A stretch of DNA of 64,000 nt. Source: Cenarchaeum sp. (lineage in GTDB: Archaea; Thermoproteota; Nitrososphaeria; Nitrososphaerales; Nitrosopumilaceae). Shown here piece by piece: positions 10,519 through 40,589 of this stretch. A program made the translations under genes and the position numbers. Where the stretch lies: NCBI GenBank assembly GCA_965242695.1, contig CBDESU010000001.1, positions 672,001-736,000 on the forward strand, read 5' to 3'. The notes under the pieces are model-generated. The model did not search any database. It saw only the letters and a list, made by a program, of their open reading frames with translations, and was not told the DNA's origin. The stretch's first letter is position 1. The number at the start of each line of letters is the position of its first letter.

Positions 10519-10908
10519 GACACCGTGGGCCTATGCTCCCGCTATTAGCGATTTGCCCTGCACCGCAGGCGGAGCAGGCGCGGCAGGCAGGGGCGCCCGC
10601 CGCCCGCGCAGCCGCCGCGTGCCGGATATGTGCCGGACTGCATGCCGGCCCGCGCGGCCTCCGATCGCACTCGGGCCTTGCGGCCGTCCTGCGGCTGGCT
10701 ATCCGCGGGGATTAGGAGGGCCGCTCGCCGCCGTTTCAGCCGCCGAGCAGGTCGATGAGCGGCCCGCCCGTCAGCTGCACCCTGATGTGCCCGAACTTGT
10801 CGTCGTTGCCCTCGATGTCGGCGAACGCCGCATCAGACGTGATGATCACGGAGGCGCCCGCGTCCTCGGCGAATGCGTAGTGTACCAGGTCGTATCTATG
10901 AGCTACCC

Positions 10909-10916
10909 TTTATAAA
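10909..10916 (-). promoter_or_regulatory. TATA box TTTATAAA near right end of IS110 A (putative circle-junction promoter)
   Basis: After circularisation it would start 29 nt upstream of the transposase GTG (12814). Confidence 0.5.
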
Positions 10917-11013
10917 GAAAACCGGCCCCGGCCGCCCCTAGGCGTGGTTTTTCACGCATCCGGGCAGAGCCTCCCCTAGGGTGTCGTGTCCCTCTCGGCG
11001 TCCAATGCGGTAT

Positions 11014-11140
11014 ATGGATCGGACATTTATCTATCCGGGGACGAACCCCACTACCGTCTTCATCCATTTGCCAGGGTCACGGCATTTACACACACGGGGA
11101 CTAACCCCATACAGGCACTCGCCGACGAGACCCTGACCAT
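11014..11140 (-). ncRNA. Putative bridge RNA of IS110 element A
   Basis: Two similar stem/internal-loop/GGGG-N5-CCCC hairpin modules. Loops match the target (11110-18 is the reverse complement of 7759-67) and the element end (11028-34 equals 10893-99). Confidence 0.7.
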
Positions 11141-11146
11141 GATGCA

Positions 11147-12814
11147 TCACGCTGCCCTCGCGGGCGCAGATGCGGCCGCGGCCTTGCGCCGGCAGCCCTT
11201 GAACTGCGCACTCCCCTCCGCCATGCAGTTGACAAAGGTGAGGTTCTTCTTGAGCATCCAAAAGACGATGCGGAGCAGCTTGTTCACCGCCGCTATCATG
11301 GCCTTCTTTGCGGGCATCCTCTCGCACAGCCTCTCGTAGTACCTCGTGATGTCCGAGTCGACGTGCCCGACGTGCACAAGCACGGCCTCGCACAGTATCC
11401 ACCTGACGATCTTGCTTCCCGTCTTGGTTATGCGCCCGTGCTTTACAATGTCGGCAGAGCTCCTGTCCGACGGGACCAGCCCAAAGTACGGCGCCAGGGC
11501 GTACGGGCTGCTAAACCGCTCTATGGGGCCTATCCATGCCGCCAGGGCAAGCGCGATGAAGTTGCCAAAGCCCGGAAAGGACAAGAGTAGCTGCGCGGCG
11601 GGGTTGGCCGCCACCATGTCCCTTATCCGCAGGTCGGTCTTTATCACCTGGTCGTCGATGCCCGAGATCATGTCCAGGCACTGGTTGATCCTCCACTCGC
11701 CGAGCCTGCGGAGGTTCGAGACGAACGTGTCCGACCACTTTGCCCCCTCGACCTTGATGGCCTTTTGCAGAAGGATGGCCTGGATGAACACCTTGTACTT
11801 TGCCCTCGCCCGCGTCAGGCGGGCCCTGTGCGACGTGGCCTCCCTCTCCTTCACCGTCTTGTCGTCTGGGACGTAGCACGGGGGGATGCTCTTTATGCGC
11901 AGCAACTCGGCAAGATTCCTGGCATCGACCCTGTCGTTCTTGTTCTTGGACTTGGCGATCAGCGCAGTCTGCAGCGGGTTTGACAGGATCATGTCGAATC
12001 CCATCGCCTCTATGAACCGGTAGACCGCGTACCACACCGACGACGACTCGACAACGCACCTGGTCCTGTCGGGCGGCAGCCCCGCGAAGTACGACCTGAT
12101 GGCATCGAAGCTGTTGATGATTTTGGCCTCCTCTACGATCGTCCCAGCCTCGTCGGATACGGCGATCTGCAGCGTGCGCTTGTGCAGGTCTACCCCCACG
12201 TAGAACATTCCCTCCGACACAGCCGTTCTCTCCATTTCAGCGACCTCCTTTGCCGTCAGGGCCCTGGTGCTTTTCCTGGCCGCTGCCCGCGCCCTTTCCC
12301 CCTTTGCCACAATCCTTTTCTTCATGCCACTGACATTCCGTGACGCCGCGGAACTGCCGCCCCTCTTGGGCTTGGCCGAGGGCCGAGGCTTGGGCTTGGC
12401 CGCTGCCCGCGCCCTTTCCCCCTTTGCCACAATCCTTTTCTTCATGCCACTGACATTCCGTGACGCCGCGGAACTGCCGCCCCTCTTGGGCTTGGCCGAG
12501 GGCCGAGGCTTGGGCTTGGCCGCTGCCCGCGCCCTTTCCCCCTTTGCCACAATCCTTTTCTTCATGCCACTGACATTCCGTGACGCCGCGGAACTGCCGC
12601 CCCTCTTGGGCTTGGCCGAGGGCCGAGGCTTGGGCTTGGCCGAGGGCCGAGGCTTGGGCTTGGCCGCTGCCCGCGGCCTTGCTTCCGTACCTGTGCGTCG
12701 TTGCACGGCCGCGCCCTCGCGGGGGGCCATGTGTATCTTTGCGACGTCGGCCTCGCCGTTCCCAGCGCCCGACTTGGCACGCCCACCGTCTGAATTGCGT
12801 TTCTGGCCCCTCAC
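11147..12814 (-). CDS. IS110-family transposase/recombinase with Lys/Arg/Ala/Pro-rich repeat N-terminal extension
   Basis: YVGVDLHK, VVES, KNDRVDA (DEDD), LLSFPGFG, YFGLVPSDRSS, GRITKTGS. Alternative start ATG near 12235. Confidence 0.9.
   Translation of the reverse strand: MRGQKRNSDGGRAKSGAGNGEADVAKIHMAPREGAAVQRRTGTEARPRAAAKPKPRPSAKPKPRPSAKPKRGGSSAASRNVSGMKKRIVAKGERARAAAKPKPRPSAKPKRGGSSAASRNVSGMKKRIVAKGERARAAAKPKPRPSAKPKRGGSSAASRNVSGMKKRIVAKGERARAAARKSTRALTAKEVAEMERTAVSEGMFYVGVDLHKRTLQIAVSDEAGTIVEEAKIINSFDAIRSYFAGLPPDRTRCVVESSSVWYAVYRFIEAMGFDMILSNPLQTALIAKSKNKNDRVDARNLAELLRIKSIPPCYVPDDKTVKEREATSHRARLTRARAKYKVFIQAILLQKAIKVEGAKWSDTFVSNLRRLGEWRINQCLDMISGIDDQVIKTDLRIRDMVAANPAAQLLLSFPGFGNFIALALAAWIGPIERFSSPYALAPYFGLVPSDRSSADIVKHGRITKTGSKIVRWILCEAVLVHVGHVDSDITRYYERLCERMPAKKAMIAAVNKLLRIVFWMLKKNLTFVNCMAEGSAQFKGCRRKAAAASAPARAA
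12277..12675. repeat. 3 x exact 120-bp repeat plus extra 24-bp subrepeat in the IS110 A 5' region
   Basis: Lines 12301/12421/12541 are identical. In frame it encodes AAAKPKPRPSAKPKRGGSSAASRNVSGMKKRIVAKGERAR. Confidence 0.95.
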
Positions 12815-35332: not shown

Positions 35333-35872
35333 TTACGGCCACGCCGCCCGCCCTGCCTGCGCCGCTATGACTGCCTTGCGAAGCCACATCGCCTTGTTGG
35401 TCTCGTCGAAGCACACGTTGAACTTGTTGAGAAAACCATCCCTGCCCAGCAGAAAGGGCGGGTTGGCGTCACGACTGCGCGACCATTCCGTGTCGGGGGA
35501 AAGCGCCGTGACGACGTCCATGTCCACCCAGTACTTGCCGATCCATGCCTCGGTTCGGAGCTGCACGTGGTACGTGTCCATCTTCCAGCCCACGCCGAAC
35601 GCGGGATGCTTGCCGTCTTCGCTCAGCGCAACGCCCATCTCCTGCACGCCCCACATCGGCACGGACGGCATGGTTGCGCCTGTGTCGATCACCGCCATGC
35701 CCAGAACCATGTCAGAATCATCTGGCAAAGCCACCGCGGGATTCCATACCCTGATCGGAATCGCCGGCGCCAGCGTGTATACGACCTTGCCGCTTGCTGT
35801 CGGACTTTCCATCTTTACGTAGTCCGAGCGCACCTACCCTGGCGGGTACGCATCGAACTCAATCGTAGACAT
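35333..35872 (-). pseudogene. Retropepsin-like (clan AA) aspartic protease, cassette 1, in-frame TAG at codon 13
   Basis: IDTGA...FLLGRD. TGG of the paralogs is TAG at 35834-36; a GTG restart is possible at 35833. Confidence 0.7.
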
Positions 35873-36107
35873 AGTAGGCATCGGGAACCTCTGTATGGTC
35901 GGCGTATATGTAGTGCATGAGCGGCACTCCCTTGCCGGCCTTGGAGCCCTCCTGGTGGGCGCGCCTCGGATCCTTGTCGTGCGCGACAATCTCCCCGTCT
36001 GCCACCGCTATCCACTGGCCGCCGTACCTCTTGTACTCCTCCTCCGACATGTTGCCAAGGAACTCGACATCCTTCATGGGACTTCTATGGAGATCGTTCT
36101 CTGTCAT
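35859..36107 (-). CDS. DUF5678-like protein, cassette 1
   Basis: YKRYGGQWIAVADGEIVAHDKD. Confidence 0.78.
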   Translation of the reverse strand: MTENDLHRSPMKDVEFLGNMSEEEYKRYGGQWIAVADGEIVAHDKDPRRAHQEGSKAGKGVPLMHYIYADHTEVPDAYYVYD

Positions 36108-36251
36108 GGCGGGCCGTGGCGGAGGTCGATACTTAAGGCTTGCGCAGTGCGGCACGGGAGTATATAAGGAGCAAACGACACTGGCTTGAAATCCTGCACC
36201 TACGCGGCGTTCATGCTTGAACCCATGTAAACCCCCTGGGGCGCGCCGGCC

Positions 36252-36378
36252 TGTGGTCGAGCGACCCCTCAAACGGCATGGGCCAACAGAGCCCTCATGC
36301 TTGAATGGGGCAGTCCGAGCTGCTGTGTTACTGGGCCGTAGAGCCCTGATAGGTGAGTGCAGCTTACGACCGACCACA
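36252..36378 (+). ncRNA. Putative bridge RNA of IS110 element B
   Basis: Closing stem TGTGGTCG/CGACCACA encloses two loop modules. 36295-303 TCATGCTTG equals the target flank; 36349-55 ATAGGTG equals the right end plus core. Confidence 0.78.
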
Positions 36379-36401
36379 CGTATGATAAAGGGGGTGATAA
36401 T

Positions 36402-37511
36402 GTGAAATATATTGGAATAGACATCGCTAAAGAGACCAACCATGCATGCATCATGGACCGCAAGGGCAAGGTTCTCGACCGCGCCATGTTTGGCAACACG
36501 GCCGAGGGCACACGCAGGTTCCTCAAGGCAGCGCGCAGGGAGCACGGCAAGTTCGTCGTCGGCTGCGAGGCCACGGGGTACATGTGGGCAAAGTTGTGCG
36601 ACATGTGCGCGAAGGAGAATGTGGAGTTCAAGCTTGGCAGTCCGTACAAGATGCGGATCATATGGATGAGCTCCAACAAGAACGACAAGAACGATGCCGA
36701 AAAGATCGCGGATCTGCTAAGGCGCGACGCCTTTCCGGCGTGCCACCTGGGCGACCAGGAGACGCGCGCGCTGAGGGACATGATGCGCGCCATCATCGCA
36801 CTCGTACAGGACAGGACGAAGGTCTGCAACAGGCTTCGCGCCCTGCTCGTAAAGTACGATTTACGCCTAAAAGCGACCAAGATCTACTCGAACAAAGCCA
36901 TTACCCAGCTCCGCGGCACAACGCTAGGCAACCACGTCGACAACACGAACATCCAGCGCCTCGTCAAGCAGCTAGAGTTCTTCAACCGCGAGATCGGCCT
37001 TGCAGAGAAGGATGTTCTCCGCGAGGCGGCAAACTCAAAGTTTGCCCCGACGGTGCGCCGGATCGTCAGCATGACTGGCGTCGACGCGTACTCTGCGCTG
37101 CTGATTTCAGCAGAGCTGGACGGCATAGATCGATTCTCGGATCCCAAGAAGATTATCTCGACGGTAGGCATGTGCCCAAGCGTGCACCAGTCGGGAGACT
37201 CTCTACGCCATGGCGGCATGAAAAAGCTCGACGTTAACCGCAAGCTCAACTGGATAATGATTCAGGTGGCATCAGTGGCAGTCCGCTACGACGACCACCT
37301 GAAGAAGTACTATGAGCACGTCAAGAAGCGACACGGCGGCAAGCACGTGATCGCGGTCACACACGTGGCCAACAAGATGTTGCGGATAATGTGGGCCATG
37401 GAGCGAGACCATACGCTATATTGGTACCGCAACGAAAAGCTGTACCAGAGCAAGCTGGCAAAACTCGACAAGGCGATGCGTTCCGACACGACTCAGAAGA
37501 TCCAGGGGTAG
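36402..37511 (+). CDS. IS110-family transposase/recombinase
   Basis: YIGIDIAK, CEATG, KNDKNDA, SMTGV, GMCPSVHQSG. GGGGGTGA SD-like sequence before GTG 36402. Confidence 0.95.
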   Translation: MKYIGIDIAKETNHACIMDRKGKVLDRAMFGNTAEGTRRFLKAARREHGKFVVGCEATGYMWAKLCDMCAKENVEFKLGSPYKMRIIWMSSNKNDKNDAEKIADLLRRDAFPACHLGDQETRALRDMMRAIIALVQDRTKVCNRLRALLVKYDLRLKATKIYSNKAITQLRGTTLGNHVDNTNIQRLVKQLEFFNREIGLAEKDVLREAANSKFAPTVRRIVSMTGVDAYSALLISAELDGIDRFSDPKKIISTVGMCPSVHQSGDSLRHGGMKKLDVNRKLNWIMIQVASVAVRYDDHLKKYYEHVKKRHGGKHVIAVTHVANKMLRIMWAMERDHTLYWYRNEKLYQSKLAKLDKAMRSDTTQKIQG

Positions 37512-37844
37512 TTTTTTCCCGACCAGCACCCGAAGCCTGGCCTACCGGCCGGGCCGCATCGAGGCCCCCGGCCCCCGCCGGTTGCCGCCCCCATAGGGGG
37601 CGACGCGAGCAATGTTTAAGAAGGATGCCGCCGGCCGGCCCTCGGTCGCATGACGCAGGACACCGACTTGGCCGGCGCGCCCCTGGGGGTTTCATAGGTG
37701 GCCGCCGAAGCCCGCCATGCGCGCAAGGCGAATCGGCGGTGGTGATCCGACAGGCGCTGTCCGCCGCCGCCGATCGCCGCAAGCGCCTTGTCCGCCATGC
37801 CGCCGAGCGCACTAGTGCCACCGTCCCGCGCTGCCGTCCTCCTA

Positions 37845-38122: not shown

Positions 38123-38665
38123 TCACGGCCACGCCGCCCGCCCAGCCTGCGCCTCCATGATGGCCTTGCGAAGCCACATCGCCTTGTTGGTCTCGTCGAA
38201 GCACACGTTGAACTTGTTGAGAAAGCCGTCGCGTCCCAGCAGGAACGGCGGGTTGGCGTCACGCCTGCGCGACCATTCCGTGTCGGGGGAAAGCGCCGCG
38301 ACGACGCCCATATCCACCCAGTACATGCCGATCCACGCCTCGATGCGGACCAGCACGCGGTACGCATCCATCTGCCAGCCCACGCCGAATGCAGGCTGCT
38401 TGCTGTCTTTGCTCAGCACAATGCCAAGCTCCTGCACGCCCCACATCGGCACGGATGGCCTGACTGCGCCTGTGTCGATCACCGCCGTGCCCTGAATTAT
38501 GCTGTAGGCATCCGACAAAGCCACCGCGGGATTTCGCACCCTGATCGGAATCGCCGGCGCCAGTACGTAGGCGACCCTGCCGCTTGCCGTCGGCCTTTCA
38601 ACCTCCGTGTAGTCCGAGCGCACCCACCCTGGCGGGAACGCATCGAAATCAATCTTCGAAGACAT
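38123..38665 (-). CDS. Retropepsin-like aspartic protease, cassette 2
   Basis: IDTGA, FLLGRDGFL. ATG overlaps upstream gene by 17 nt. Confidence 0.8.
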   Translation of the reverse strand: MSSKIDFDAFPPGWVRSDYTEVERPTASGRVAYVLAPAIPIRVRNPAVALSDAYSIIQGTAVIDTGAVRPSVPMWGVQELGIVLSKDSKQPAFGVGWQMDAYRVLVRIEAWIGMYWVDMGVVAALSPDTEWSRRRDANPPFLLGRDGFLNKFNVCFDETNKAMWLRKAIMEAQAGRAAWP

Positions 38666-38900
38666 AGTAGGCCTCGGGGACTTCCGTATGGTCGGCGTAG
38701 ATGTAGTCCATGTGTGGCACTCCCTTGCCGGCCCTGCAGCCGTCCTGGTGGACGCGCCTCGGATCCTTGCCGTGCGCGACGATCTTCCCGTCTGCCACCG
38801 CCACCCACTGGCCGCCGTACCTCTTGTACTCCTCCTCCGGCATGGTGGCAAGGAACTTGACATCCTTCATGGGGCTCTTATAGAGATCGTCCACTGTCAT
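38649..38900 (-). CDS. DUF5678-like protein, cassette 2
   Basis: YKRYGGQWVAVADGKIVAHGKD. Confidence 0.78.
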   Translation of the reverse strand: MTVDDLYKSPMKDVKFLATMPEEEYKRYGGQWVAVADGKIVAHGKDPRRVHQDGCRAGKGVPHMDYIYADHTEVPEAYYVFED

Positions 38901-39338
38901 GCCGGGCCTTGGCGGAGGCCGACACTTAAGGCTTGCGCAGTGCGGCATGGAAGTATATAAGGAGCAAACGACACTGGCTTGAAAATCTGCACCTATGCGG
39001 CGTTCATGCTTGGCCGCCGAAGCCCGCCATGCGCGCAAGGCGAATCGGCGGTGGTGATCCGACAGGCGCTGTCCGCCGCCGCCGATCGCCGCAAGCGCCT
39101 TGTCCGCCATGCCGCCGAGCGCACTAGTGCTACCGTCCCGCGCTGCCGTCCTCCTGCTCGGGGCGATCGCTGTCGCACGGGCCGTGCGGGGCCAGAACCG
39201 CGCTGCCTGCCGCTCCCGCTCCAGCCTGGACACGCATGGCAGGGCGTGCGGGGGCCAGCCGCGGCCCTGCATGTGCGCCGGATGGCCGCGAACTATGTCG
39301 CATCTGCGCGCGCGCAATCCTGTCCCGGTCCGTGCCGC

Positions 39339-39884
39339 TTACGGCCACGCCGCCCGCCCTGCCTGCGCCGCTATGACTGCCTTGCGAAGCCACATCGCCT
39401 TGTTGGTCTCGTCGAAGCACACGTTGAACTTGTTGAGAAAGCCGTCGCGTCCCAGCAGAAAGGGCGGGTTGGCGTCACGACTGCGCGACCATTCCGTGTC
39501 GGGGGAAAGCGCCGTGACGACGTCCATGTCCACCCAATACTTGCCGATCCATGCCTTGATGCAGACCAGCACGCGGTGCGCATCCATCTGCCAGCCCACG
39601 CCAAACGCAGGATGCTTGTCGTCTTCGCTCAGCGCAACGCCCATCTCCTGCACGCCCCACATCGGCACGGACGGCATGGTTGCGCCTGTGTCGATCACCG
39701 CTGTGCCCTGAATTATACTGTAGGCATCCGGCAAAGCCGTAGCCGCGGGGTTTCGAACCCTGATCGGAATCGCCGGCGCCAATACGTAGGCTACCCTGCC
39801 GCTTGCCGTCGGCTTTCCCACCTCCGTGTAGTCCGAGTGCACCCACCCTGGCGGGAACGCATCGAAGTCAATCTTCGAAGATAT
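39339..39884 (-). CDS. Retropepsin-like aspartic protease, cassette 3 (ATG changed to ATA; possible GTG start 39842)
   Basis: IDTGA, FLLGRD. The aligned start codon reads ATA. Confidence 0.65.
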   Translation of the reverse strand: MSSKIDFDAFPPGWVHSDYTEVGKPTASGRVAYVLAPAIPIRVRNPAATALPDAYSIIQGTAVIDTGATMPSVPMWGVQEMGVALSEDDKHPAFGVGWQMDAHRVLVCIKAWIGKYWVDMDVVTALSPDTEWSRSRDANPPFLLGRDGFLNKFNVCFDETNKAMWLRKAVIAAQAGRAAWP

Positions 39885-40119
39885 AGTAGGCAGGTGGGAC
39901 TTCCGTGTGGTCGGCGTAGATGTAGTCCATGAGCGGCACTCCTTTGCCGGCCTCTGATCCCTCCTTGTGGACGCGTTCAGGATCCTTCCCATGCGCGACG
40001 ATCTCCCCGTCGGCCACAGCCACCCACTGGCCGCCGTACCTCTTGTACTCCTCCTCCGGCATGGTGGCAAGGAACTTGACATCCTTCATGGGGCTCCTGT
40101 AGCGGTCGTTCTCTGCCAT
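39868..40119 (-). CDS. DUF5678-like protein, cassette 3
   Basis: YKRYGGQWVAVADGEIVAHGKD. Confidence 0.78.
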   Translation of the reverse strand: MAENDRYRSPMKDVKFLATMPEEEYKRYGGQWVAVADGEIVAHGKDPERVHKEGSEAGKGVPLMDYIYADHTEVPPAYYIFED

Positions 40120-40589
40120 GGCGGGCCGTGGCAAGGGCCGGCATTTAGGGCTTGCGCAGTGCGGCACGGGAGTATATAAGGAACAGACCACAACGGCTTG
40201 GAATTCTGCACCTGTACGGCATTCTGCCTTGGCCGACGCGGTGGCATGCGCGCGAGGCAATCGCCGGTGGCGACCTGACTGGAGCTGCCCGCCGCCGCCG
40301 ATCGTTGCATGTGCCCTGCCCGCCATGCCGTCGGGCGCGCCCGCGGCCGGCGTTCGGACGCGGCCGTTACATGGGCTAGGTGCGATCGTCGCCGCGCAGT
40401 CCGTGCGGGGCAGGAACCGCACTGCCCGCCGCTCTCGCACCGACCCCCCTTGGACACACATGGCAGTGCGCATGGAACCCTGACATGGCCCTGCGCGTGC
40501 GCCGAACGGGAACGATCCGCCACCTGCGCATGCGTATAATCCGCCCCGGCATGCAGCTCACGGCCACGCTGCCCGCCCCGCCTGCGCCT

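Follow-up and report, generated by a model that had tools for sequence, protein, structure and literature searches.

An intact IS110/IS1111-superfamily insertion sequence, very probably RNA-guided, from a sponge-associated ammonia-oxidising archaeon

Bridge/seek RNA recombinases are under development as programmable DNA-insertion tools, and, to our knowledge, nearly all that has been described of their diversity in nature comes from bacteria. No paper joining bridge RNA or IS110 with thaumarchaeal terms was among the matches listed in our literature search.

Both IS4321 and the IS1111-type seekRNA elements ISEc11, ISPa11 and ISKpn4 (PMC11187229) encode a DEDD/Ser recombinase with the motif GL-P----SG, and the parts of that paper dealing with IS1111-type organization place the RNA and a long non-coding region downstream of the gene. 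In the accounts given of the IS621/ISEc21 type (PMC11208160, PMC11208158), the RNA is encoded at the left end and precedes the gene. Durrant et al. (PMC11208160) inferred that the bridge RNA has been translocated from end to end.

Here we analyse element B, an archaeal relative located in a window of 64,000 nucleotides of Cenarchaeum sp. DNA (the whole stretch that was analysed). Its recombinase has the same GL-P----SG motif as the IS1111-type proteins, whereas its RNA is upstream of the gene, as in the IS621/ISEc21 type and as in 75/75 matches in its own family. The comparisons presented below make it very probable that element B, which resides in an ammonia-oxidising thaumarchaeon, is an RNA-guided member of the IS110/IS1111 superfamily and is intact.

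Boundaries and recombinase of element B

Element B is an intact mobile IS110-family insertion sequence of a sponge-associated ammonia-oxidising archaeon. Its boundaries are fixed by the unoccupied site at 39004-16 and by the end of homology with a second copy in the same genome (copy 2). The element and its sites comprise the following features, where modules 1 and 2 are those of the predicted left-end RNA.

36211-36219, + strand: left target flank TCATGCT with the left TG core (36218-19), together TCATGCTTG; identical to the module 1 3' strand
36220-37700, + strand: element B, 1481 bp including the right-hand TG (37699-700)
36220-36228, + strand: left terminal extension AACCCATGT, the right-donor half-site
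36229-36251, + strand: left sub-terminal inverted repeat of 23 nt, reverse-complementary to 37670-92 except for 1 mismatch at its centre
36402-37511, + strand: recombinase gene, GTG start, 369 aa, stop included, frame intact
37512-37669, + strand: right non-coding region, GC-rich, with no match to covariance model R1
37670-37692, + strand: right sub-terminal inverted repeat
37693-37700, + strand: right terminal extension CATAGG with the TG core, the left-donor half-site; matches the module 2 3' strand
37701-37706, + strand: right target flank GCCGCC, which continues the empty-site sequence and needs a one-base bulge to pair with the right guide
39004-39016, + strand: unoccupied target TCATGCT-TG-GCCG, that is TCATGCTTGGCCG, a perfect match

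The core dinucleotide TG is present at both ends of the filled site (36218-19 and 37699-700) and once in the empty site, and no further target sequence is duplicated. Site-specific insertion at a shared core with no further duplication is characteristic of the IS110 superfamily. A preliminary description of this DNA had already pointed out the loops, ends, stem, hairpins and empty site, and every coordinate and string that it gave was borne out on checking. The TG core that it proposed is confirmed by comparison of the two junctions with the single TG of the empty site, and its perfect empty target at 39004-39016 was found, the string TCATGCTTGGCCG occurring only once in the 3.89-Mb genome. 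The right non-coding region is of variable length among relatives: at most ~110 nt separate the right end from the end of the recombinase-gene match in two loci (L014, L021), compared with >450 nt in the copies in genome G359.

The recombinase matches the Pfam families DEDD_Tnp_IS110 (PF01548; 1.5e-30) and Transposase_20 (PF02371; 5.7e-16) and scores 205.8 bits against NCBIfam NF033542 (cut-off 140). A search of PDB sequences with the single protein returned no match at E <= 0.001, so a family profile was needed; this finds the ISCro4 and IS621 chains at 1e-26 and aligns the motifs IGID, cE(s/a)T, KTDxxDA and SG to ISCro4. Residues D7, E56, D95, D98 and S264-G265 are invariant across 7 family members. 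The protein therefore has the N-terminal DEDD RuvC-like domain and the C-terminal Tnp domain with catalytic Ser-Gly of IS110-superfamily recombinases, and the Pfam, NF033542 and family-profile matches together uphold the original assignment of the element to the IS110 family. Three named references were compared with the recombinase: the IS4321 and IS5075 proteins are 24% identical to it over 91-96% of its length (E ~1e-11) and are no closer than ISEc45 (E 7e-19). The host had been called thaumarchaeal, in agreement with the presence of amoA in its genome and with the occurrence of relatives of element B in Nitrosopumilaceae, Cenarchaeum and Nitrososphaerales MAGs.

The predicted left-end RNA

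The predicted RNA core lies in the interval that separates the recombinase gene from the left sub-terminal repeat. Its closing stem, in which TGTGGTCG (36252-59) pairs with CGACCACA (36371-78), encloses two modules of the same design, each consisting of a stem, an internal loop and a hairpin of the form GGGC..GCCC (36280-94 and 36333-46).

36252-36378, + strand: predicted bridge/seek RNA core, closing stem to closing stem, 127 nt, R1 score 109.2 bits
36265-36310, + strand: predicted target-binding module (module 1), stem CCCC/GGGG, hairpin 36280-94
36269-36279, + strand: module 1 5' strand TCAAACGGCAT, with the right guide CGGCA at 36274-78
36295-36306, + strand: module 1 3' strand TCATGCTTGAAT, comprising the left guide, the TG core and then AA, which matches the first bases of the element
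36318-36364, + strand: predicted donor-binding module (module 2), stem AGCTGC/GCAGCT, hairpin 36333-46
36324-36332, + strand: module 2 5' strand TGTGTTACT, complementary to left-end positions 2-6
36347-36358, + strand: module 2 3' strand TGATAGGTGAGT, containing ATAGGTG, the right end plus core

The loops repeat the sequences of the junctions. The string TCATGCTTG is found at 36211-19 and again in module 1 at 36295-303, and ATAGGTG is found in module 2 at 36349-55 and at the right end at 37694-700. The segment TGTGTT (36324-29) is the reverse complement of AACACA, matching the left end AACCCA (36220-25) at 5/6 positions. The 3' strand of module 1, having the same sequence as the left flank, TG and the first two bases of the element, would pair with the bottom strand, and the 5' strand of this module is complementary to TG and the right flank on the top strand.

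We assessed these matches by shuffling the 162-nt left end (n=200,000). The 9-mer was present in 55 shuffles and the 7-mer in 1,814, with none containing both. Taken alone, a 9-nt match to some part of a 37-nt target, whichever the strand, is not unusual (256/5,000 shuffles), and the weight of the evidence therefore rests on the location of the matches, in loops and ending at the junction, together with the comparative data.

Folding of the left end as a single sequence was not significant (z = -1.75) and recovered only module 2 and hairpin 1; with module 1 missing, this route to the full structure was rejected. The full two-module structure is accepted because covariation supports it. An 18-sequence alignment made with MAFFT, and so not fitted to the structure, has 91.7% paired cells and compensatory changes at 13/28 pairs, a result equalled by 0/500 shuffles, whereas sliding the partners by 1-3 columns reduces the paired cells to 32-52%. 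Thus, of the check by folding and covariance that the preliminary description had proposed, the covariation and the R1 matches came out strongly but the single-sequence folding did not.

Covariance model R1 finds the RNA in 75/98 related loci, always directly upstream of the recombinase gene and on the same strand, and also matches an element on a Natrinema megaplasmid. A search of the whole window against Rfam at the gathering threshold gave no match, and a permissive Rfam search of 36200-36420 gave chance-level matches to MS2 and Sphinx only. Element A, in the same window, has a similar RNA downstream of its gene, with a weak R1 match.

Insertion sites and guide-flank covariation

Copy 2 is 100% identical to element B over 1127 nt and occupies an unrelated site, with only CATGCTTG (8 nt) and TG+CCG in common between the two. 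Contigs from four sponge-metagenome runs extend this picture. The element contigs of X1, X2 and X10 (3/4 runs) start at 36212 and those of all 4 runs end at 37700; several different sequences adjoin the element on either side, and the flanks of these insertion sites are otherwise unrelated but have CATGCTTG in common. Contigs that skip 36218-37698 (X1, X3, X10) were rejected as a sign of excision or polymorphism because they could stem from the paralogous empty site at 39004. A contig covering 36240-36570 is present at higher depth in X3 and is not interpretable from contigs.

The claim that the RNA is programmed against the protease-cassette array was overstated. The array has only 3 homologous spacers, one filled, one empty and perfect and one diverged, and the other sites share just CATGCTTG. 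The observed sites indicate that element B is aimed at a short motif and not at the array. The proposed match of the module 1 5' loop to the right flank holds in part: CGGC (36274-77) is indeed the reverse complement of GCCG (37701-04), but this pairing is one base off the register seen in the family and at copy 2, where the right guide CGGCA pairs contiguously with TG+CCG. Against the observed right flanks, the right guide of element B matches only 3/6 non-core positions, and the copy in the window needs a one-base bulge.

It is unlikely that the RNA-guided design is real and element B is nonetheless no longer mobile, the copy in the cassette spacer recording one off-register event. The bulge at the right flank would fit such a history, as would the presence of a single intact copy in the genome and the absence of an insertion from thirteen CATGCTTGCCG sites and from the perfect site at 39004. 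However, element B retains an undamaged reading frame, both of its ends and each of the four loop strands, the complete identity of copy 2 over 1127 nt points to a recent event and related metagenomes carry the element in several other flanks.

We extended the analysis of guides and flanks to the whole family. Element boundaries were placed from the donor loop only, which was possible for 55/75 R1 matches; in the other 20 the right-end 7-mer was absent (13), the loops or upstream sequence were too short (6) or the flank was beyond the locus (1). Placement by the longest inverted repeat, which donor-loop placement replaced, misplaced several ends, those of element B among them. In the set of 41 distinct guide pairs, left guides match at 4.66/7 positions (1.99 when permuted) and right guides at 4.46 (1.90 when permuted), and 0/10,000 permutations fit guides to their own flanks as well, figures that overstate independence because related elements share ancestry. 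The covariation of loops with insertion sites that had been predicted for homologues is thus present.

A position map made without prior assumptions about register shows the module 1 5' strand to be antiparallel-complementary to right-flank positions +1 to +6 and the module 1 3' strand to be identical to the 5 bases preceding the core. In module 2, positions 2-4 of the 5' loop covary with left-end positions 5-3 (38 representatives); the bases past the core in the 3' strand show no covariation with the right flank in this map. An element's own 7-mer is present in the expected downstream window in 59/72 records, compared with 12/319 for the 7-mer of another class. As donor-loop matches served to place the boundaries, they are independent evidence for element B alone. 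The core covaries as well, being TG or AG, and in the three AG-core guide classes both 3' strands read AG and the 5' strand reads CT. In genomes G068 and G359, elements with different guides occupy correspondingly different flanks within one genome. In relative C only 5/9 positions of the left flank are matched, which counts against the model.

The alignment, the R1 matches and the guide-flank covariation together point to the guide RNA expected of an IS110-superfamily element. They support the reading, made from sequence comparison, that the left end encodes a bispecific two-loop guide RNA matching the element's own ends and insertion site; the stem covariation, R1 matches and guide-flank covariation all agree with the two-loop bispecific RNA that the preliminary description had placed there. 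By inference from IS621, ISEc11 and ISEc21, this RNA would be transcribed and bound by a tetramer of the DEDD/Ser recombinase, and would bridge the junction CATAGG-TG-AACCC of the circular element to a target of about 5-7 nt, TG and 3-6 nt. Recombination at the core would then insert the element.

The left-end motifs could instead act as DNA, either as sub-sites recognised by the protein or through single-stranded or cruciform pairing, with no guide RNA. All of the evidence is DNA sequence, no RNA run is listed as containing this stretch, and the long inverted repeats of element B could work at the DNA level. This is nevertheless very improbable, given that the motifs sit in the single-stranded loops of a structure with covarying stems, that one strand carries the matched sequence itself and the other its complement, like the strands of characterised RNAs, and that structures of homologous recombinases have been solved with an RNA of this kind bound. 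Least credible of all is the reading in which the recombinase mRNA simply has a leader or attenuator here and the matches to flanks and ends are coincidental or left from past recombination: the structure does immediately precede the ribosome-binding site and the gene, and a lone 9-nt match is not rare, but the two junction-anchored matches never occurred together in the shuffles and leader function cannot give rise to family-wide covariation of loops with flanks and core.

Comparison with the IS1111 and IS621 types

The accounts of IS1111-type organization in PMC11187229 share several features with element B: sub-terminal inverted repeats, target duplication limited to shared bases, and a top-strand-complementary segment 5' of the bottom-strand one with a hairpin between them. 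This guide order, with the top-strand match 5' of the bottom-strand match, is found in element B and its whole family, and IS4321 (locus L127), analysed as a canonical IS1111-type control, has the same order. The combination of IS1111-type sub-terminal repeats with a 5'-encoded RNA had been recognised correctly at the outset, and the guide order is of the IS1111 type as well. Against the dimensions reported in PMC11187229, the repeats of element B are long (23 bp versus 7-17, usually 11-13 bp), as are the terminal extensions beyond them (9 nt left and 6 nt + TG right, versus 7 and 3) and the recombinase (369 aa versus 330-350). In the relatives of element B the longest exact repeat stretches are 6-15 bp and the left terminal extension is 8-9 nt. 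Both binding sites of element B are simple internal loops, unlike those described for the IS1111 type in PMC11187229.

The IS621 type, as presented in PMC11208160 and PMC11208158, resembles element B in having the target loop first and the donor loop second, hairpin-closed internal loops in pseudo-symmetric modules, and a dinucleotide core read by both strands. In element B, the 2 nt of the 3' strand that follow the core agree with the other substrate, resembling the handshake guides of IS621 in these papers. The strands are exchanged, however: the left-flank-identical guide is on the 5' strand in IS621 (A50-U58) and on the 3' strand in element B, and the right-flank-complementary guide is on the 3' strand in IS621 (G77-G80) and on the 5' strand in element B. 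The core is CT in IS621 and TG or AG in the family of element B. Sub-terminal repeats, long in element B, are given as absent or 2-3 bp in the IS621/ISEc21 type, and the closing stem around both modules sets element B apart from IS621 as described there (PMC11208160, PMC11208158).

These mixed features of two described groups bear on how the RNA moved between element ends in evolution. If the segment carrying gene and RNA in an IS110-type element were turned round between the ends, exactly the arrangement of element B would result, and a subsequent downstream move of the RNA would give the IS1111 type. Because both arrangements follow from these steps, the lineage could be an intermediate in translocation. 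We tentatively raise the possibility, which we regard as less probable than its converse, that this archaeal lineage (Nitrososphaerota and Bathyarchaeia, reaching haloarchaea) represents a third bridge-recombinase configuration, with IS1111-type guide order and sub-terminal repeats and a 5'-encoded, IS621-like two-loop RNA, and that it is intermediate in the end-to-end translocation of the RNA.

Whatever its history, the family is a readable archaeal one with at least 41 natural guide pairs, whose targets follow a simple rule, with TG or AG preceded by about 5 nt and followed by about 6 nt. Handshake-like positions are present, the core changes in concert across the loops, and members of the family can be recognised as a source of site-specific rearrangement in ammonia oxidisers associated with sponges.

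One of the IS1111 relatives with an unusual non-coding region, ISHvo10, comes from Haloferax. In a haloarchaeal relative of element B, too, the RNA lies upstream. Among the exceptions named in PMC11187229, the long non-coding region is upstream in ISMtsp17 and on both sides in ISHvo10 and ISAcp5; the passages of that paper on these three elements concern the position of this region only, without RNA, guides or targets. On that description, their IS1111-like features combined with an upstream or double long non-coding region liken them to element B. The known mechanism is unchanged by these findings, and element B is a real relative of the known bridge/seek-RNA recombinases that departs from them only modestly.

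Element B, its gene and its host

Element B, an IS110-family element, is an insertion of 1481 bp. In a paralogous spacer, at 39004-16, the left flank (...GCGTTCATGCTTG) and the right flank (GCCGCCGAAGCC...) are joined without interruption and with one TG only. B is therefore bounded by two TG dinucleotides with no other duplication, and at the level of sequence its boundaries, core and intact gene are clear.

Features of element B (window coordinates)
36220-37700: the insertion
36229-51 and 37670-92: sub-terminal inverted repeats, 23 bp with 1 mismatch
36252-36378: core of the predicted bridge/seek RNA
36402-37511: recombinase gene, the sole gene; GTG start after a GGGGGTGA ribosome-binding site; product of 369 aa

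The recombinase has Pfam matches to DEDD_Tnp_IS110 and Transposase_20 and scores 205.8 bits (cut-off 140) against NCBIfam NF033542 ('IS110 family RNA-guided transposase'). A PDB sequence search with the single B protein gave no match; a profile of 7 family members was needed to reach the ISCro4 and IS621 chains, which it did at about 1e-26 with the catalytic motifs aligned. Beyond the repeats, the left terminal extension is 9 nt long and the right one 6 nt plus TG. An A/T-rich box (TGTAAA, TGATAA or TGAAAG) is conserved at left-end positions 7-13, 18-25 nt 5' of the closing stem, and we conjecture that it may be an archaeal TATA box. By homology, the RNA would be transcribed and a recombinase tetramer would bind it; the element would form a circular intermediate joined at CATAGG-TG-AACCC, and strands would be exchanged at the core.

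The source genome, 3.89 Mb in all, consists of two contigs of 2.21 and 1.68 Mb with a G+C content of 67-68%; its completeness is 96% and its contamination 0.75%. Listed genomes of its family are mostly 1.1-2.7 Mb, with one of 4.3 Mb. Because the genome encodes an archaeal AmoA, falls in one family with MAGs named Cenarchaeum, Nitrosopumilus and Nitrosopumilaceae, and is represented by this stretch in sponge-metagenome runs, the host's description as thaumarchaeal is supported.

A conserved, predicted two-module RNA upstream of the gene

The preliminary description had drawn a two-module fold in the left end of B, and every string and coordinate in it was correct on recheck. In 200,000 shuffles of the left end, the 9-mer TCATGCTTG arose in 55, ATAGGTG in 1,814 and both together in none, and an unanchored 9-nt match to a 37-nt target occurred in 256 of 5,000 shuffles. 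The evidential weight of the loop matches is in where they sit, not in their mere presence. Folded alone, the left end gave z = -1.75 and recovered the drawn structure in part only.

Of 401 genomes sampled from the phylum, 13 encode recombinase relatives (E <= 1e-30), and a scan of genome contigs gave 212 confirmed stretches, 80 of which were kept. Almost all of the kept relatives come from Nitrosopumilaceae, Nitrososphaerales and Bathyarchaeia MAGs. Eighteen upstream regions were aligned with MAFFT and scored against the structure as first drawn, with the closing stem extended to 10 bp. Paired cells amounted to 91.7%, as against 32-52% when the 3' partners were slid by 1-3 columns, and 13 of 28 pairs showed compensatory changes; none of 500 shuffles equalled the observed values. 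The alignment bears out the fold.

A covariance model built from this alignment (R1) detected the RNA in 75 of the 98 loci searched and placed it each time immediately 5' of the gene, on the gene's strand; the 23 loci without a match are more distant or truncated. Run unfiltered, R1 also detected the RNA in an element on a Natrinema megaplasmid, again upstream of the gene (32.8 bits). Rfam holds no comparable family for B's RNA. Four relatives lie on contigs of bacterial-labelled MAGs (L070, L083, L105 and L116; Kaiserbacteria, Gemmatimonadales, Poribacteria and Dehalococcoidia), with an R1 match in L083 only; binning error or transfer among members of the sponge or soil community could account for them.

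In the source genome R1 matches four places: B, a second copy of B, element C and a deletion derivative of C. Element C (contig 2, 864945-866430), a relative at 41% identity, has this RNA too. The right guide and the donor guide of C fit the flanks and ends of C and covary with B's; the left guide, TTTTGCATG, agrees with the left flank, GCATACATG, at no more than 5 positions out of 9. The miniature derivative (contig 1, ~1013240-1013470, minus strand; 35.5 bits) is ~220 nt long and has no gene. It retains the left end and target-binding module of C; its donor module is truncated, and a C-type right end, ending CACAGGTG, is fused to it.

Another IS110-family element of the window is A (10892-12250 on the minus strand, with its recombinase gene at 11234-12202), whose protein is 26% identical. 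An RNA-like stretch at 11011-11138, with two modules and GGGG..CCCC hairpins, matches R1 weakly (17.3 bits, E 0.0016) downstream of the gene, the IS1111-type placement. Judging from its loop strands, GTGTGTGTAAAT and GGATAGATAAAT, the core may be TA, and CATAGATA follows a further ~110 nt downstream; a left end was looked for and not found.

Guides, flanks and insertion sites

Against circularity, element ends were set from the donor loop alone, the right end as the first downstream occurrence of the 7-mer from the module 2 3' strand and the left end as the best fit of the module 2 5' strand. Placement succeeded for 55 of 75 R1 matches; the 20 failures comprise 13 without a downstream 7-mer, 6 with short loops or no upstream sequence and 1 with its flank beyond the locus. 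The expected interval contained the element's own 7-mer in 59 of 72 records and a 7-mer of another class in 12 of 319.

Guides and flanks were then compared using one representative per distinct guide pair (n=41) and 10,000 permutations. In module 1, identity between the 3' strand and the element's own left flank extends to 4.66 of 7 non-core positions (permuted flanks 1.99, maximum 2.76), and complementarity between the 5' strand and the element's own right flank to 4.46 of 7 (permuted 1.90, maximum 2.80); no permutation reached either value, although these figures overstate independence because related elements share ancestry. Two observations are independent of that problem. Within a single genome, variants whose guides differ have flanks that differ to match (TTTTTTGTG versus TTGGTCGTG in G068; TTCCAAATG, TTCCATGTG and TTCCAGATG in G359), and the core itself switches: in three guide classes with an AG core, both 3' strands read AG and the target-loop 5' strand reads CT.

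The base-pairing logic of the four loop strands is clear at the sequence level. An unbiased map of each loop position against each flank and end position (38 representatives) yields four clean relations. In the target loop, the 5' strand (positions 3-8) shows antiparallel complementarity to the right flank (+6 to +1), and the 3' strand (positions 3-7) has the same sequence as the five bases preceding the core; the second base past the core in the 3' strand equals the element's second base; and module 2 5' strand positions 2-4 are complementary to left-end positions 5-3. In four loci of a Cenarchaeum sp. MAG (L016, L034, L052 and L063) nothing separates the left-guide match (ATTCATTTG) from the sub-terminal repeat, the 8-nt terminal extension otherwise found there (AACACATG in sister copy L027) is absent or substituted, and the right flank fits the right guide at 7/7; this arrangement may be an aberrant recombination product.

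B occupies more than one insertion site. In the window its left guide matches the left flank at 9/9 positions; family-wide, the outer two positions do not covary with the flank. The second copy (contig 1, 1340322-1347267, minus strand; loci L002-L004 and L010) is 100% identical over 1127 nt and is flanked by CCCCATGCTTG and CCGGCG, and there the right guide CGGCA pairs contiguously with TG plus CCG. The window copy needs a one-base bulge for this pairing because its right flank is GCCGCC; L073 and L074 show a similar offset. The second copy was later split by two other insertions, one of ~2.27 kb with inverted ends of ~24 nt and a 10-bp duplication, the other of ~3.17 kb flanked by a TA duplication. 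In Logan contigs from 4 sponge-metagenome runs of 4 studies, the element contig ends at 37700 in 4/4 and starts at 36212 in 3/4 (X1, X2 and X10). Differing sequences adjoin both sides (three different ones per side in X1), with right flanks starting CCTTG in X2 and X3. All left flanks thus have CATGCTTG in common, and the right flanks agree with the guide in only 2-3 bases.

These sites bear on the proposal that the RNA is programmed against the protease-cassette array, which was overstated. There are only 3 homologous cassette spacers, one filled, one empty and one diverged; other insertion sites share a short motif, and the genome has 13 unoccupied CATGCTTGCCG sites and one TCATGCTTGGCCG site. 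B's target is a short motif rather than the cassette array. The cassettes beside B (35859-36130 and 35333-35833, minus strand; repeats at ~38123-39317 and ~39339-40473) each contain a small ORF (MKDV.FL..M.EEEYKRYGGQW...) and a putative aspartic-protease-like ORF with an AVIDTGA motif, and B lies ~50 nt upstream of the TATA-like box of the first (TTATATAC, minus strand, 36161-68).

Comparison with IS1111-type elements and IS621

In the IS621 target loop the left-flank-identical guide (LTG, A50-U58) is the 5' strand, and the right-flank-complementary guide (RTG, G77-G80), followed by handshake bases 81-82, is the 3' strand (PMC11208158, PMC11208160); in B the two are swapped. Siddiquee et al. 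describe reversed strand order as the difference between the IS1111 and IS110 groups, the top-strand match lying 5' of the bottom-strand match in IS1111-type RNAs and 3' in ISEc21, of the IS110 type (PMC11187229). In IS4321 (plasmid record), the downstream non-coding region folds as a stem, 5' strand, hairpin and 3' strand; the 5' strand contains AAAACGGAA, the reverse complement of the right flank TTCCGTTTT, and the 3' strand contains TATTTTC, the left flank TATT then TTC. B thus resembles the IS1111 type in strand order and sub-terminal repeats but differs in RNA position and terminal-extension lengths, and its protein is only 24% identical to those of IS4321 and IS5075. The combination of IS1111-type repeats with a 5'-encoded RNA, noted at the outset, stands, and strand order can be added to it.

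According to Durrant et al., 'the vast majority' of each group follow the RNA-position rule (PMC11208160). A few IS1111 relatives have an upstream or double non-coding region (ISMtsp17, ISHvo10 and ISAcp5; PMC11187229), and sections 6, 9 and 12 and the abstract of that paper contain no RNA analysis of them. Bridge and seek RNAs themselves, archaeal IS110 recombinases (Vaysset et al. preprint) and bulk mining of IS110-adjacent RNAs (Evo-PIN preprint) are already in print. Among the papers listed by our literature searches, none links bridge or seek RNAs with thaumarchaea, although supplementary tables of earlier work might include this family. Probably new here is an upstream RNA with IS1111-type order in an archaeal clade, with a stated targeting rule.

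The design of B's RNA is that of IS621, its 3' strand running in the order distal guide, core and two bases matching the other substrate. The DNA polarity is inverted relative to IS621, and the strand read by the 3' guide therefore has 5'-CA or 5'-CT at the core.
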